Source: a virus. Taken from it: 64,000 nucleotides of DNA. The notes below the pieces were generated by a model. It saw only the letters and a program-made list of their open reading frames with translations, did not search any database and was not told where the DNA came from. Shown in pieces: positions 28,155-64,000 of this stretch. The position numbers were made by a program, and so were the translations under genes. The number at the start of each line of letters is the position of its first letter. Within the stretch, counting starts at the first letter, position 1. The stretch is taken from IMG/VR virus record IMGVR_UViG_3300035661_000025, positions 1 to 64,000 of that record. One strand, written 5' to 3'.

Positions 28155-29849
28155 ATGAAAATTTTCTTAAGCATCATCCCAGCAGTTCTATCGGCTGAGA
28201 TTTTGACATTAGATCCAGTACTTGTAGAATCAACTACATATTCACCAATTTCTGAGTATAGAGACAATAAAGTTGATTTTAGCGCTATACAAACTAAAAT
28301 GAACATTCAACAAACTGCACCTGGAATGTATAGCCCGGTAATTCAAGGTCTTCAAGGCGAATTAGTTGGAGTGAAATTTGAAGATGTTATTATGAATAAC
28401 TCAAATTTTAGAAGTGGTCCAAATCAATATTTTTCATGGATACCAAATGAATTTGTAGATTACAAATTGGAAGCAGGCAATGCAATTGGGTTAAGTGTAG
28501 ACTCTCACATTACAGATGTTTCTCAAGTTTATGCAGAATATAGTTCATATGACCAAGGTAGAAAATTAATTGCTACAAAAAAATATGATAACACAACTGT
28601 AGGTTTGAAGTTATATAAAACTGGCGATTATAATAATATTGAACATACTGCATATAACCAAGATGCATTCTTTGTCAAAAATATCACTGGAAACAATACT
28701 TTTATCGCTTTATATAGCACATCATCAGATATTGACCGATTAGATAAATTTATTCAAAGAAAACCATATACATATCTTGACCAAGATTATGTTTTTATCA
28801 AAGATTCATACAAACTAACTAACAACGATACAGTTACAGGAAGTTATCAAAGATTCGTAGAAAATGTAAACGATAATGGAAAAGAAGTTGATTCTACTAA
28901 TAACGTTTATGGAGCTCAATATGTTCATAAATTTGAATCCGGAATTAGCGTTAAATTAATGGATTCATATGAAGATCTTATGTATAATCAAAAAGATTTC
29001 ACTTATAATACAACAACGGCCGGAATTAGTTATAAAAACGAATTATTTGGCATTAAATTGAAATCAAATATTGATGGCATATGGGCTCAAACTACAGACA
29101 AGCAAGATGATGTTACCAAGAATTTTAACACATATAGTTACAATATAGAATTGCAAAAAAATATTGTATATGGAAGTGTAAGAGGTGGATATAAGCTTCC
29201 TACAGCTAACAATCTTTATTATTCAAGAACCACAGGAAAAGGAAATGATGTACCAAATGCGTCATTAATTCCAGAAACATCAAAAACATATTCTTTAGGT
29301 ATTAAAGATGTAATTGATGATTTTACCTACAACATCAGTGGTTATTATATGTATCTTGATAATGCAATATCAAGTGTTAAAGTCGGAAATATATCAGGGG
29401 TAGATCAATATCAAGCCCAAAATGTTGGAGACGGCATGGTTAAAGGTGCTGATGTTACCTTGACATATGATAAAGATTTGTTCGGTTCATTATTTAATTT
29501 TCAATATGTGTATGGAGAAGATGGTTCAGATTATATGAGTAAAATCACTCCGTGGAAAATTTATTGGAAAAATGAGTACAATCATTATTTTGTAACTTGG
29601 AATTATGCTCATAAAGGAATTCACTTATCTAAATCAGATATGAATGATGTAAGAATTGTAAATCCAACTTACAATGAGTACAATAATAAAGGATATAACA
29701 CTATAGATATTGGTTATTCTAATAATTATAATAAATGGTTATATGGAATAACATTTAACAATATATTCAATAATGATGGAAGAGCAATGGGTTCATCAGT
29801 TGATGTTCCAGAACGTAGTGTAAATATTAGATTAGGATATGCTTTTTAA
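28155..29849 (+). CDS. TonB-dependent outer-membrane receptor
   Basis: Signal peptide, TonB box LDPVLVES, plug QQTAPG..SPVIQG..FRSGPNQY, PETSKTYSLG, NNIFN, terminal LGYAF. Confidence 0.88.
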   Translation: MKIFLSIIPAVLSAEILTLDPVLVESTTYSPISEYRDNKVDFSAIQTKMNIQQTAPGMYSPVIQGLQGELVGVKFEDVIMNNSNFRSGPNQYFSWIPNEFVDYKLEAGNAIGLSVDSHITDVSQVYAEYSSYDQGRKLIATKKYDNTTVGLKLYKTGDYNNIEHTAYNQDAFFVKNITGNNTFIALYSTSSDIDRLDKFIQRKPYTYLDQDYVFIKDSYKLTNNDTVTGSYQRFVENVNDNGKEVDSTNNVYGAQYVHKFESGISVKLMDSYEDLMYNQKDFTYNTTTAGISYKNELFGIKLKSNIDGIWAQTTDKQDDVTKNFNTYSYNIELQKNIVYGSVRGGYKLPTANNLYYSRTTGKGNDVPNASLIPETSKTYSLGIKDVIDDFTYNISGYYMYLDNAISSVKVGNISGVDQYQAQNVGDGMVKGADVTLTYDKDLFGSLFNFQYVYGEDGSDYMSKITPWKIYWKNEYNHYFVTWNYAHKGIHLSKSDMNDVRIVNPTYNEYNNKGYNTIDIGYSNNYNKWLYGITFNNIFNNDGRAMGSSVDVPERSVNIRLGYAF

Positions 29850-59737: not shown

Positions 59738-60589
59738 ATGACCTCAAAAATTCAAGAAAAAGACCCATTCGGTCATAGAATTAAAGAATATGAAGCAAGT
59801 GCAGAGATTTATTTGGATAAATCCAAATACTCCATCATGCGAATTGATGGGCACGGCTTTTCTAAATGGACGAAAGGTTTCTCAAAACCTTTCGATGAAT
59901 TTTTAGCAAATGCATTAGCAGAAACAGCTAGAGCATTGATGGATGAATTTAAAGCAGTTTGCGCTTATTCTCAATCTGACGAAATCACCTTGATTTTTGC
60001 TCCAGATGATAACTTGATTTATTCTGGAAGAATTCAAAAACTAACTTCATTAGCGGCATCATTTGCTTCAATGAAGTTCAATGAATTAATCAGAGAAACT
60101 CTTAGTAAATTATACACTGAGAAAGAAGGTTTGATGCGTGTTAGATCTGCTTCTGTTGAATTATCTAAAGAATATGATAAAATTAACAATAAGGTTTCTT
60201 TTTTGGAGACAAAAATTGGAAGAGCATTTTTTGATGCTCGAGTTTTTCAAGTTCCAGATAAAACTGAGGCATTTAATTCACTTTTATGGAGAACCAGAGA
60301 TTGTGAACGAAACTCTAAAAACGTTTTTGCTCAAAGTATTCTATCCCATAAAGAATGTCAAAACAAAACAAGCAATGAACTAGTTGAGATATGTGAAGAG
60401 CTTGGTCATTTTTGGAGCGATATTCCAGATAAATACAAATATGGAATTCTTTGGAAAAAAGAAACGTATTTGAAACAGCCAGAAAACCCAGAGTTAGAAC
60501 CATGTTTCAGAACAAGATTCATCCAAATCATTAAGAGATTGAATTACTCAGACGAGAATGTTGAAATGGTGCTTTGTAATAAACTTTAA
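59738..60589 (+). CDS. tRNA-His guanylyltransferase / Thg1-like 3'-5' polymerase
   Basis: RIDGHGFS, YSQSDEI, GRIQKL, FDAR, WR..D. Confidence 0.92.
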   Translation: MTSKIQEKDPFGHRIKEYEASAEIYLDKSKYSIMRIDGHGFSKWTKGFSKPFDEFLANALAETARALMDEFKAVCAYSQSDEITLIFAPDDNLIYSGRIQKLTSLAASFASMKFNELIRETLSKLYTEKEGLMRVRSASVELSKEYDKINNKVSFLETKIGRAFFDARVFQVPDKTEAFNSLLWRTRDCERNSKNVFAQSILSHKECQNKTSNELVEICEELGHFWSDIPDKYKYGILWKKETYLKQPENPELEPCFRTRFIQIIKRLNYSDENVEMVLCNKL

Positions 60590-60736
60590 TAAGTTTCAAA
60601 GGTAATTTCTGTTATAATTAAATGTAAGAAAGAAGGAGTCCTATGGCGTATTTTTTAACAATTACATTCATTGCTATAATGATGTATGGCGTATTTTCAT
60701 CTTGTAATGTATTTTCAGAATTGAAGGGTAGAATAA

Positions 60737-61111
60737 ATGTTAATTAGCAATATACGAAGTGTATTAGAGATTTGTTTCAAATCTAATGAAACTTTAATGA
60801 TTGAAGGCCCTCATGGGATTGGAAAATCAGAGGTTGTAGCTAATTTTGCTACAGAAAATAATATGCATAATGAAACATTATTCTTGTCCAACCAAGAAGT
60901 GGGTGATTTGATTGGTATGCCACGTTCAATAGAACGTAATGGTGAGGTTATTCATACATGGACGAAACCTATTTGGTTACAAAAAATGGAAGAAGCGGTT
61001 ATGCCCGCTAAATTCGATGTAGATGATTTAGAATTTTCGGATGAGGACTTCAAGGCTTTCGTTTACTCAAAACTAAAGGAATTGAATGAAGTTAGTAAGG
61101 GACAAATATAA
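60737..61111 (+). CDS. MoxR-like AAA+ ATPase, N-terminal half
   Basis: Walker A GPHGIGKS, EVGDLIGMP, KPIW; no Walker B. Confidence 0.85.
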   Translation: MLISNIRSVLEICFKSNETLMIEGPHGIGKSEVVANFATENNMHNETLFLSNQEVGDLIGMPRSIERNGEVIHTWTKPIWLQKMEEAVMPAKFDVDDLEFSDEDFKAFVYSKLKELNEVSKGQI

Positions 61112-61613
61112 AGATATAATCCCAGAAGATAAGTTATTTTATATTGAACAAACAGATAAAAAAAGTTTAATAAAATATCTTTCTTTAAAACTAAAAGAGG
61201 AAACTCAAGAGTTTATAGATACTGGATTGACATCTCTAGAAGAACTAGCGGATATTATGGAAGTTTTAGATACCATAATGGAAACATTTGGAATCAATCC
61301 TGATGAGTTGGCGAATGTAGCTAAAAATAAAAATGAAGAAAAAGGGTCTTTTAAAGATTATCTTCTATATGATGATTCTGTTCCAGAAGAAGCAAAAAAT
61401 AATGGCGGAAGCACAGATTATTATAAACTTCCTGCGGGAGCTAAAGATTTGCAAGATCTCATTGAATTTAAAAATATGAACTTTTCTCAAGGTAATATAT
61501 TCAAAGCTATGTATAGATCTGGCGTAGAGCATCATTCGACATATGAAAGAGATTTGAATAAAATTATTTTCTTTGCAAAAAGAGAGTTAAACCGAATTAA
61601 AGGAGACTCATGA
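61086..61613 (+). CDS. MazG/PRA-PH-like pyrophosphatase fused to small DUF3310-like domain
   Basis: KLVRDK, EELADIMEV; GGSTDYY..DLIE..MNFSQGNIFKA. Confidence 0.75.
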   Translation: MKLVRDKYKDIIPEDKLFYIEQTDKKSLIKYLSLKLKEETQEFIDTGLTSLEELADIMEVLDTIMETFGINPDELANVAKNKNEEKGSFKDYLLYDDSVPEEAKNNGGSTDYYKLPAGAKDLQDLIEFKNMNFSQGNIFKAMYRSGVEHHSTYERDLNKIIFFAKRELNRIKGDS

Positions 61614-62134
61614 AAGTAATAAATTTTTTCGGCGGTCCAGGTACCGGAAAAAGCACTACAGCTGCAGGATTGTTTCATTTAATGAAAACAATGGGTTATA
61701 AAGTAGAATTGGTAACAGAATACGCCAAAGACGTAGTTTATCAAGAATCATTTTTTAAACTTAAAGATCAATTGTATATTTTTACTAAACAACATCATAA
61801 GCTGTGGAAACTTAGAGGAAAAGTAGATTATGTTATAACGGATAGCCCGTTATTGTTATCGTTACATTACTTTCAAGAAAACCCCATTTATAATGAAGAT
61901 AATTTCAAAGCTTTTGTTAAAAGCACATATGATGCTTATGACAATATAAATATTTATCTCATCAGGAATTTAGACCATCACCCATATCAGGGATATGGTC
62001 GAACTCAATCAGAATCTGAGGCGATACAGATAGATCGAGATCTTGTAGAGTTGTTGACACAAAATAAGGTTCAATATTCATCTAAACTAATTACTTCAAG
62101 TATTGTTCAGGATGTTTTTGATATAATCAAATAA
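61610..62134 (+). CDS. NadR/Ttd14-like P-loop kinase
   Basis: GGPGTGKST, EYAKD, ITDSP, GR.Q. Confidence 0.75.
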   Translation: MKVINFFGGPGTGKSTTAAGLFHLMKTMGYKVELVTEYAKDVVYQESFFKLKDQLYIFTKQHHKLWKLRGKVDYVITDSPLLLSLHYFQENPIYNEDNFKAFVKSTYDAYDNINIYLIRNLDHHPYQGYGRTQSESEAIQIDRDLVELLTQNKVQYSSKLITSSIVQDVFDIIK

Positions 62135-62279
62135 CCTAAAAATGTAAGGTTATGTAACTTTTGTTTTTCTGGCAAATGAAACAAAAAGATAGTTACAATG
62201 ATTGAAGCACTTTCTTAAGAAAGTAGGTAAAAGATGATAGGTTTCATCTTCCAACGAAATTGAAAAAAGGAGATCAATA

Positions 62280-62993
62280 ATGGTAATAAATCCAATTGAT
62301 AATTTACGGAAATCTATTAGAATTCAACGAAATTTAATAGTCGGTTTAGTAGCACTTGTTGCAGTGACAGTGTATAGCGCTAAATTGTACATTGATTCGT
62401 ATTATAACGACATTCGTATTGAGAATAAGAATGTAAAAGAACTCAATGATAAAAAAGCTCAAGAAATCGAGCGCCTTAAGAAAGATTTGGAAAGAAATGA
62501 AGCTGAGTTGAAGAAATTTAATGTTCAGAAACAAGTAATTTCAATGTATATTAAGGAGAAAAATCCTAAAGTTGATGATAAAGAAGCTGCTTATTATGCT
62601 ACTGAAATCATCAAATCCTCAAACAAGTATGAAAATGTTAAACATACGGTTTTAACCGGTTTAATAGATTCTGAATCTTCTTTTAAGAAGAATGTCAAAC
62701 ACAATGCTGGATCATCTATACACATTGGTGTAAAAGGATTTACAGGAGTTGCTTCAGGTATATGGTCTAAAGAATTGATTGCCAATCATGTTATCCGAAA
62801 ACCAAGTGATTTGGAAATTCCAAAATACGCTATAGCCGCCGGGGCATATATTTTGAACAAATATTCTAAACATCAGTCCACGTTTGAGGCACTAGTTGAT
62901 TATAAATCAGACTGTCCTTTAGGTAGAAAACAAGCTCTAGATGTTTTAGCTAGAGCTGATAAAATCAAAAGAATGGAAGAAAGATATGCTTAA
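62280..62993 (+). CDS. Membrane-anchored lytic transglycosylase (SLT-like)
   Basis: N-terminal TM, coiled coil, SESSF catalytic Glu, GAYIL, AL..Y. Confidence 0.75.
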   Translation: MVINPIDNLRKSIRIQRNLIVGLVALVAVTVYSAKLYIDSYYNDIRIENKNVKELNDKKAQEIERLKKDLERNEAELKKFNVQKQVISMYIKEKNPKVDDKEAAYYATEIIKSSNKYENVKHTVLTGLIDSESSFKKNVKHNAGSSIHIGVKGFTGVASGIWSKELIANHVIRKPSDLEIPKYAIAAGAYILNKYSKHQSTFEALVDYKSDCPLGRKQALDVLARADKIKRMEERYA

Positions 62994-63336
62994 TTTTTTC
63001 AAAAAAGAAAATCCCGATTTTACAATAATCGGGAAAGATTCTACATTTAAAGGCGAGATAACCAGTTCTCATCAAGTTTACATAAAAGGCACTGTAGAAG
63101 CTAATAAAATCATAGCTAAAAGTGTTTTTATTGAAGTTGGAGGTTCTTTAACTGCCGATATAGAATGTTCCGAAGTTTTTATCGCTGGAGTTTATAAAGG
63201 AAACATTAATTGTAGTAATATCACTATTGAACCTACCGGTGACGTAGAATCAGATATTACTTATACATCTATGTTGAATATAAATCCAAACTGCACATAT
63301 AATGGAACCATAAAAAAATCTTTAAATTCCGTTTAA
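62986..63336 (+). CDS. Bactofilin (polymer-forming cytoskeletal protein)
   Basis: TIIGKDSTFKGEI...YIKGTVEA...IAGVYKGNI...GDVESDI beta-helix repeats. Confidence 0.88.
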   Translation: MLNFFKKENPDFTIIGKDSTFKGEITSSHQVYIKGTVEANKIIAKSVFIEVGGSLTADIECSEVFIAGVYKGNINCSNITIEPTGDVESDITYTSMLNINPNCTYNGTIKKSLNSV

Positions 63337-63399
63337 ATTATCAGGTTGTTTTAAGCAACAACCTGATATAATAATACAAATAAACCTTCAGGAATGATT

Positions 63400-64000
63400 A
63401 TGATAATAACTCGAGAAATCCTTCAAAACTTATACAATCAGTATTATGAAACAGACCACAGTCTGTTGAGCAAACACAACACTCACGTTCATTATTCAAA
63501 AGGTAAACACACCTCATTATTACTAGATGAGTTAAATCGTGCACCATTGGATATAAGACAAGCTGCACTTCAATTAATCCTAAGCAAACAAATACATCAA
63601 CATACATTACCTTATTTTAAAGGTATTCCGGCTATGGTTACAGCTTGTATTAATCCAGAAGATGGATATCAAGTTGAAGCTATGGACCCAGCATTGCTAG
63701 ACAGATTTTTAACATTAAATGTTACTGTTGATGCAAACGCTTGGCTAAAATGGGCGGAAAATCATGATGTCTTAAAAGTTATTAGATCTTTCATTCGTGA
63801 TAATCCAGACAAATTACATTGGAGTTCAGTAGAAGTTCAAGATTCAAAATATCCTACTCCACGAGCATGGACTAAATTATCGGACGTTCTTAAAAACATC
63901 CCAAATGCCAAGAAAAATCCTTTGACTTTAGATTTAATAAAAGGAAAAATTGGAGAGAGTATTGGGACTCGTTTTTATACTTATTTTTGTAAATTTGATG
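63400..64000 (+). CDS. MoxR-like AAA+ ATPase, C-terminal half (runs off window; not in ORF track)
   Basis: Promoter at 63364, AGGA RBS; Walker B LLLDELNRA, sensor-1 INP, Arg finger DPALLDRF, PTPRAW; no Walker A. Confidence 0.88.
   Translation, partial: MIITREILQNLYNQYYETDHSLLSKHNTHVHYSKGKHTSLLLDELNRAPLDIRQAALQLILSKQIHQHTLPYFKGIPAMVTACINPEDGYQVEAMDPALLDRFLTLNVTVDANAWLKWAENHDVLKVIRSFIRDNPDKLHWSSVEVQDSKYPTPRAWTKLSDVLKNIPNAKKNPLTLDLIKGKIGESIGTRFYTYFCKFD

Follow-up and report, generated by a model that had tools for sequence, protein, structure and literature searches.

A candidate bactofilin and membrane-anchored lytic transglycosylase module in a distant T4-like phage

Bactofilins are cellular scaffolds that place wall enzymes, and the cytoskeletal proteins known from phages, which resemble tubulin or actin, have DNA as their object. 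What would a phage gain from a bactofilin gene that overlaps the gene of a putative membrane-anchored lytic transglycosylase (hereafter the SLT gene)? This question is raised by the virus record IMGVR_UViG_3300035661_000025 from IMG/VR, a linear record of 96.4 kb that is ca. 55% complete by estimate, whose first 64 kb are the window analyzed here. The original prediction read the two genes, from the sequence alone, as a possible module for remodeling the shape of the host cell. Its identification of a gene with transmembrane (TM), coiled-coil and SLT segments, of a bactofilin gene and of their overlap was confirmed, including all coordinates, by Pfam searches and structural models (Table 1).

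The bactofilin gene and the overlapping transglycosylase gene

The open reading frame (ORF) at 62986-63336 is a full-length bactofilin gene. Its deduced product matches the Pfam Bactofilin profile (PF04519) over positions 1-97 of 98, with 71.4 bits against a cut-off of 27.9 (E 7.5e-20), and an exhaustive HMMER scan identified 964 homologues at E<=1e-3. A profile search also retrieved the structures of BacA from Caulobacter crescentus (2n3d, 1.5e-23) and of the bactofilin from Thermus thermophilus, TtBac (6ria, 1.6e-22). The protein could be modeled with a predicted local distance difference test score (pLDDT) of 93.9, and the model superposes on a subunit of the Thermus filament (6rib_A) with a TM-score of 0.87 and a root-mean-square deviation of 1.8 Å, and on 2n3d with a TM-score of 0.85. 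The protein begins with MLNFFKK, and its nearest relatives with MLNWFKK or MFNFKK; this N-terminus is similar to MFSKKKK, the consensus for membrane targeting in bactofilins (PMC12448750). Additionally, Tyr105 aligns with the Phe residue of the polymerization interface (F130 in BacA); this is a conservative aromatic change, and Phe is present in the relatives P0007 and P0156-P0158.

The deduced product of the upstream gene matches the Pfam SLT profile with 26.6 bits (curated cut-off 21.3, E 4.8e-6) over residues 111-206. Its AlphaFold2 model, with a pLDDT of 86, consists of a single helix (residues 5-94) followed by a globular domain. Among PDB entries, this domain is most similar to lytic transglycosylases and further members of GH23 (P. 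aeruginosa Slt, MltE, MltC and phiKZ gp144); Foldseek comparisons with these four gave a probability of 1.0 and E values of ca. 1e-2, in agreement with a goose-lysozyme-like fold. Four homologues were found in a collection of 5.8 billion proteins, with 80, 69, 50 and 37% identity. Glu-Ser is the catalytic motif of family-1 lytic transglycosylases, and residues S131 and E132 are invariant across the phage protein and the four homologues, down to 37% identity, E132 being the presumed catalytic residue.

The SLT protein can be divided into a tail (residues 1-18), a TM segment (ca. 19-38), a helical stalk of ca. 57 residues (ca. 39-95) and the SLT/GH23 domain (ca. 96-237). The mean Kyte-Doolittle hydropathy of residues 20-38 is 2.0, and ranges from 2.0 to 2.6 across the five proteins, with four to six Gly, Ala, Ser or Thr among the 19 residues of the segment in all of them. 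The tail has a net charge of +3 (+2 to +5 in the five proteins), as opposed to 0 to -2 after the TM segment. Because of this hydropathy of at least 2.0 and of the positive tail, the protein is predicted to be a stable bitopic membrane protein with its N-terminus inside, having the stalk and the enzyme in the periplasm and only the 18-residue basic tail in the cytoplasm. Within the tail, N4 and P5 are the sole residues that are invariant among homologues down to 37% identity, defining an NP[I/L] motif. Phage proteins of small size that combine a long N-terminal helix with an SLT domain also form viral clusters of 62 and 66 members in the ESM Atlas; such proteins seem to be a wider viral class, and the phage enzyme by itself is therefore not unusual.

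The 8-nt overlap of both genes, ATGCTTAA, suggests that their translation is coupled. The relatives keep both the C-terminus of the SLT protein (...RYA) and the start of the bactofilin (MLN), which is precisely what this overlap requires. The nearest bactofilin cluster contains proteins of 120 aa with ca. 42% identity; four of its members are found on contigs of 14697, 11659, 5931 and 2357 nt, and four SLT homologues are found on contigs of identical sizes and from the same sources. From these coincidences we infer that the genes are adjacent, and travel together, on no fewer than four additional metagenomic contigs, the smallest of only ca. 2.4 kb. Likewise, contigs from a wastewater run that are ca. 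96% identical to the phage contain both genes, as well as the two halves of the flanking ATPase gene, in unchanged order. The original prediction counted a lack of conservation of the pair among its possible refutations, and the pair is indeed maintained on these four contigs and in the wastewater relative. Further related loci were not found in viral contigs using as queries the bactofilin, the SLT alignment, the related protein P0009 or the C-terminal half of the ATPase, nor in metagenome contigs searched with the SLT alignment. Conservation was uneven, because in the same phage lineages (P0003/P0004 versus P0157/P0158) the enzyme is 69-80% identical and the bactofilin only ca. 42%, which points to very unequal rates of divergence or to a replacement of the bactofilin.

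Table 1. Coordinates of the features of the bactofilin/SLT locus; positions are those of the window, unless indicated.
Feature	Position	Strand	Basis
SLT gene, 237 aa; predicted bitopic membrane-anchored lytic transglycosylase	62280..62993	+	ORF, Pfam, AlphaFold2 model, hydropathy
S131-E132-S133 codons; E132 presumed catalytic	62670..62678	+	invariance of S131, E132
8-nt overlap ATGCTTAA; bactofilin start inside SLT stop	62986..62993	+	sequence
Bactofilin gene, 116 aa; beta-helix residues 12-111	62986..63336	+	Pfam, profile search, model
Intergenic leader, 145 nt; AAGGAG ribosome-binding site 8 nt before ATG	62135..62279	+	sequence
Extended -10 motif TGATATAAT; possible but atypical promoter for the pair	62119..62127	+	motif enrichment
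Hairpin with 12-bp stem, directly after bactofilin stop	63339..63368	+	z -4.8
Canonical -10 (TTAAGC-N8-TGATATAAT) for downstream ATPase C-half; right edge of unit	63364..63372	+	motif analysis
Four-gene insert splitting a MoxR-type AAA+ ATPase gene	61086..63393	+	PHROG 1297 halves
ATPase N-half, with Walker A	60737-61111		PHROG 1297 profile positions 11-96
ATPase C-half, with Walker B	63394-64353 of record		PHROG 1297 profile positions 97-260

A candidate bactofilin/wall-hydrolase module and its alternatives

The closest known counterpart of this arrangement is the BacA-LmdC pair. LmdC, from Hyphomonas neptunium and Rhodospirillum rubrum, is a proven bactofilin client that binds BacA by a cytoplasmic peptide, and is composed of a short cytoplasmic region, a TM segment, a periplasmic coiled coil and a C-terminal hydrolase (PMC10945521). 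The phage locus shares with it the adjacent and co-oriented genes, the layout of the client and the small size of the bactofilin, whose N-terminal peptide in the phage resembles those that bind the membrane. However, the M23 domain of LmdC cuts peptide cross-links, whereas the SLT/GH23 domain of the phage protein would cut glycan strands, and there is no M23 match in the phage record; also, the phage client has a tail of 18 residues with the NP[I/L] motif in place of the beta-hairpin of LmdC, and the putative module is viral instead of cellular. A second parallel is PbpC from C. crescentus, in which a conserved peptide right at the N-terminus mediates docking on BacA polymers (PMC12448750). 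Here, the common elements would be a bitopic wall enzyme as client, with a conserved peptide in its N-terminal tail, and the N-terminal peptide of the bactofilin (MFSKKKK versus MLNFFKK in the phage); nevertheless, PbpC is a synthase with a long tail, and the phage client would be a wall-cleaving enzyme with a minimal tail.

The analogy invoked in the original prediction was that with CcmA and Csd1/Csd2 from Helicobacter pylori, where a bactofilin is likewise found beside peptidoglycan hydrolases acting on cell shape; Csd1 and Csd2 are M23 peptidases, though, and no link of the phage to Helicobacter or Campylobacter was found. The general analogy to bacterial bactofilin/wall-hydrolase pairs proved to be closer than claimed, in view of the LmdC layout and of the order of the genes. 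Indeed, loci of low-GC bacteria on marine metagenome contigs (L003-L017, e.g. L008:107-2384) contain, in a conserved arrangement, parA-parB, a gene for a membrane M23 peptidase, a bactofilin gene, atpI and ATP synthase genes, with a gap of 1 nt between the peptidase and bactofilin genes, and therein the hydrolase gene precedes the bactofilin gene as it does in the phage.

The LmdC-type layout, the possibility of a PbpC-type N-terminal docking and the same gene order in the marine bacterial loci lead us to propose, with a confidence somewhat short of an even chance, that the pair is a phage-borne bactofilin/wall-hydrolase module in which membrane-associated bactofilin polymers would gather or confine the tethered transglycosylase, so that cleavage of glycan would be spatially organized. 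The SLT protein would insert into the inner membrane with its N-terminus inside, holding the enzyme domain in the periplasm on its stalk of ca. 57 residues. The bactofilin would remain in the cytoplasm and polymerize along the cytoplasmic side of the membrane, and its polymers would capture the cytoplasmic tail of the enzyme, both by analogy with BacA-LmdC and BacA-PbpC. Glycan strands would then be cut mainly or exclusively within defined patches of the host sacculus during infection. The benefit for the phage is a matter of speculation, and might be a local loosening or remodeling of the wall, leading to cell enlargement, reshaping or pre-weakened lysis sites, as opposed to the bulk lysis produced by a soluble endolysin. 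That the viral bactofilin positions a membrane-anchored glycan-cutter, and that the phage dictates in this way where the wall is opened or remodeled, be it for enlargement, reshaping or predetermined lysis sites, we regard as possible, with more doubt than belief.

Several observations weigh against this proposal. The support for a module comes from architecture, synteny and analogy, and each of its functional steps is drawn by analogy. The SLT domain is a divergent one, with a match of only 26.6 bits, and lacks the usual motifs: family-1 lytic transglycosylases typically contain GLMQ and AYNxG, and these are not kept in the SLT alignment, where the corresponding stretches read G-F-T-G-V and A-G-A-Y-I-L and only G153, G156 and Y190 are invariant. 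The tail of the phage protein does not have the beta-hairpin of LmdC, and a docking role for NP[I/L] is putative. Tail and bactofilin do not co-vary, because the bactofilin type of P0157/P0158 pairs with two tails sharing only 28% of their residues, and a tail that is 89% conserved pairs with bactofilins of only ca. 43% identity. A prediction of the complex of two bactofilin copies with residues 1-30 of the SLT protein scored 0.01, which counts neither for nor against binding. Moreover, the record contains only ca. 55% of the phage genome, and in its 96.4 kb the SLT gene is the only free-standing muralytic gene, such that its product could simply be the lysis enzyme.

The position of the pair far from the lysis genes, as originally described, did not hold, since the 96.4 kb yielded no lysis genes. 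In particular, there were no Phage_lysozyme, M23, Amidase_2, GH108, GH19 or GH25 genes in this record, which lacks ca. 45% of the genome, and a single further muralytic domain was seen, within a tail/baseplate protein. This is a protein of 948 aa (84014-86860 of the record), encoded beside genes for a baseplate tube-cap and a gp5-like hub, with an endolysin/M15-peptidase-like domain at ca. residues 700-840, and is likely a virion-associated wall hydrolase. The gp5-like hub, of 325 aa, is too short to contain a lysozyme domain.

The SLT protein could consequently act as the endolysin, given that its gene is the sole free muralytic gene in 96 kb. The enzyme could be membrane-tethered or released at lysis, with a bactofilin that is unrelated or that tunes the place or timing of lysis; we consider this unlikely. 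It would agree with the lack of another free-standing endolysin-type gene in the record, with the habit of T4-type phages of keeping the endolysin gene (gene e in T4) among non-structural genes, and with the existence of SLT-fold endolysins, such as phiKZ gp144. A motif resembling T4-type late promoters, TATAAATA, also occurs upstream, at 61945 on the + strand, although this nearest copy is poorly placed, within an ORF 335 nt from the SLT gene, and enrichment of the motif was not observed (11 copies versus 17.7 expected). Against this reading, the real endolysin may be in the missing ca. 45% of the genome, there are no adjoining candidates for holin or spanin genes, the neighbors being kinase-like and ATPase genes, and the conserved 8-nt coupling to the bactofilin gene would be left without explanation. 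All five proteins have a strongly hydrophobic TM segment, unlike signal-anchor-release (SAR) domains, and a stalk of 57 residues separates this segment from the catalytic domain. The SAR endolysins P1 Lyz and phage 21 R are also phage muralytic enzymes with an N-terminal membrane segment; theirs is weakly hydrophobic and abuts a T4-lysozyme-like catalytic domain, in contrast to the strong TM segment, long stalk and SLT fold found here. A SAR endolysin was rejected by the mean hydropathy of 2.0-2.6, the content of four to six Gly, Ala, Ser or Thr in 19 residues and the 57-residue helix before the domain.

Alternatively, both genes could be independent accessory genes, with a bactofilin that, for instance, co-polymerizes with that of the host, displaces it, or scaffolds replication or assembly of the phage at the membrane, and a transglycosylase that acts alone on the wall. 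Although this would accord with the mixed composition of the four-gene insert that contains them, where the other two genes are of nucleotide-metabolism type, and with the faster divergence of the bactofilin (ca. 42% versus 69-80% identity) and its failure to co-vary with the tail, we assign it a low probability, because the 8-nt overlap, with its RYA end and MLN start, persists in the relatives, both genes are present on each of four further contigs, the shortest measuring only 2357 nt, and the enzyme has exactly the client architecture that LmdC has. The original prediction also contemplated, as speculatively as the shape remodeling, a poisoning of host CcmA polymers and a block of superinfection. 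An alteration of the envelope by the module, be it to block superinfection or to disturb pili, flagella or receptors, seems to us quite improbable: the phage does have other envelope genes, including a TonB-dependent-receptor-like ORF (28155-29849, weak PHROG match), and early regions of phages commonly hold exclusion genes, but no exclusion system of such composition is known, PADLOC gave no match and nothing in the sequence points specifically to it. An NCBIfam search returned nothing meaningful. Finally, we give hardly any credence to the SLT protein being part of the virion, or ejected from it, to breach the wall during entry. Tape-measure and internal virion proteins often contain SLT domains, and the protein weakly matches profile positions 654-756 of 980 in a large "transglycosylase" family of PHROGs; nevertheless, it has an N-terminal stop-transfer TM segment with positive-inside topology, its gene is in a block of replication and nucleotide-metabolism genes instead of the structural block, and the baseplate module already has the 948-aa protein with an endolysin/M15-like domain.

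Transcription signals, phage lineage and the split ATPase gene

The window contains 18 copies of the motif TGATATAAT, where 4.2 would be expected, and all but one of these (17) lie on the + strand; 12 of the 19 +-strand copies of the 96.4-kb record are preceded by TTAAG 8 nt upstream. The canonical phage promoter is thus TTAAG-N8-TGATATAAT, situated ca. 20-35 nt before an AAGGA ribosome-binding site and the ATG, and from its enrichment we take TGATATAAT to be a real promoter element of the phage. Copies include those at 619, 7110, 9039, 11325, 12141, 12947, 14600, 38286, 40450, 55484 and 63364, and several of them share a near-identical leader, tattgtataaaaagaaaagaaggatagaaaATG. As originally described, there is a copy at 62119, upstream of the SLT gene, which contains this genuine phage element; however, it is atypical, since TTCAG replaces TTAAG and the motif lies inside the preceding ORF (61610-62134), 152 nt from the ATG. 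Its designation as an early-type promoter could not be sustained, because of this atypical structure and because the expression class is not readable from the sequence. The pair may equally be transcribed by read-through from a TGTTATAAT promoter at ca. 60610. The leader of the SLT gene is moderately structured (z -2.2), and the wastewater relative has a deletion of 5 nt in it, at 62141.

The hairpin that was described as closing the operon is real and strong, with -13.7 kcal/mol versus 0 to -5 in the regions upstream of other promoters, and its promoter is the only one in a strong hairpin. Nevertheless, it has no U-tract and contains the promoter of the next gene, as its loop, TTAAGC, and its 3′ arm make up the canonical promoter of the ATPase C-half. 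The hairpin coincides with the right border of the insert, and a contig of a relative from a sediment run contains in the same place a different hairpin with the same TTAAG loop (loose end 63367).

The phage record has a G+C content of ca. 29% and T4-type replication genes, coding for a family B DNA polymerase, topoisomerase II subunits and a DnaB-like helicase. Identity of the DNA polymerase to its counterparts in T4-like phages from Vibrio, cyanobacteria and Campylobacter does not exceed 35% in any of these groups, and we place the phage in a distant, deep and poorly sampled T4-like lineage. The Campylobacter/Helicobacter framing of the original prediction finds no support other than the low G+C. 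A TonB-receptor-like ORF, examined as a clue to the host, had no match in genome contigs. Near-identical phage DNA was found in microbial-mat and sediment metagenomes, besides the ca. 96% identical relative in wastewater runs, and small parts of the phage were matched in hydrothermal-vent runs, largely unconfirmed. The wastewater runs labeled as RNA-Seq are uninformative on expression, because their coverage is even over genes and spacers and the sequenced material may have been DNA.

The pair forms part of a ca. 2.3-kb insert that splits cleanly, between Walker A and Walker B, a gene for a MoxR-type AAA+ ATPase; both halves are open and each has its own start. Vibrio phage phiKT1024 and Alteromonas phage AD45-P1 encode the unsplit ATPase by a single coding sequence. 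The insert contains four genes: a 175-aa MazG-like/DUF3310-like ORF is followed by an AAA_28 kinase-like ORF, and the SLT-bactofilin pair makes up its right half. The first two genes look to be of nucleotide-metabolism type, so the insert as a whole is not a coherent wall module, and the unit is the SLT-bactofilin pair. The first gene (61086-61613) combines a weak MazG/PRA-PH-like N-terminal part with a C-terminal domain that recurs at the C-termini of several phage "kinase" PHROGs (phrog_4521, 4897, 7063 and 236). An Rfam search over 60000-64000 identified no intron, riboswitch or other RNA family; therefore, the split is not explained by a recognizable group I or II intron, and neither a homing endonuclease nor an intron RNA was seen in the insert. 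A contig from a sediment run joins 60982 to 63532, with a side of only 21 nt; this could reflect a relative with an unsplit ATPase, and was too weak to be used. Upstream of the insert, a 33-codon ORF (60644-60745) encoding a very hydrophobic peptide follows the TGTTATAAT promoter-like site at ca. 60610 and an AAGGAG sequence, and overlaps the start of the ATPase N-half.

Bactofilins among viral cytoskeletal proteins

According to the original prediction, a characterized phage bactofilin system is not known, and our searches agree with this. Megablast and tblastn comparisons of the region, the SLT protein and three bactofilins gave no match among cultured phages (INPHARED, 50,697 records), PHROGs has no bactofilin family and BFVD contains no viral structure resembling the bactofilin model (best TM-score 0.44). 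In the searched literature we found no description of a phage bactofilin or of a transglycosylase client. Among the larger ESM Atlas clusters, all of the nearest bactofilin clusters are bacterial. The PhuZ/TubZ tubulins and the actin-like partition proteins are comparable in being viral polymer-formers borrowed from the cellular cytoskeleton; they belong, however, to other families, are nucleotide-dependent, and act on the positioning of DNA or of the phage nucleus, without being coupled to a wall enzyme.

If the proposed module is real, it would be the first viral bactofilin system and would include the first lytic transglycosylase that is a bactofilin client, adding a third cytoskeletal family, beside the tubulin- and actin-like proteins, to the viral repertoire. 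The clients of bactofilins would then extend from peptide-bond enzymes and synthases to the cleavage of glycan strands. It would also be a minimal docking system, of two small proteins, where a tail of 18 residues is the sole cytoplasmic part of the client. More generally, the locus raises the question of whether some phages control the degradation of the wall in space, and not only its timing.

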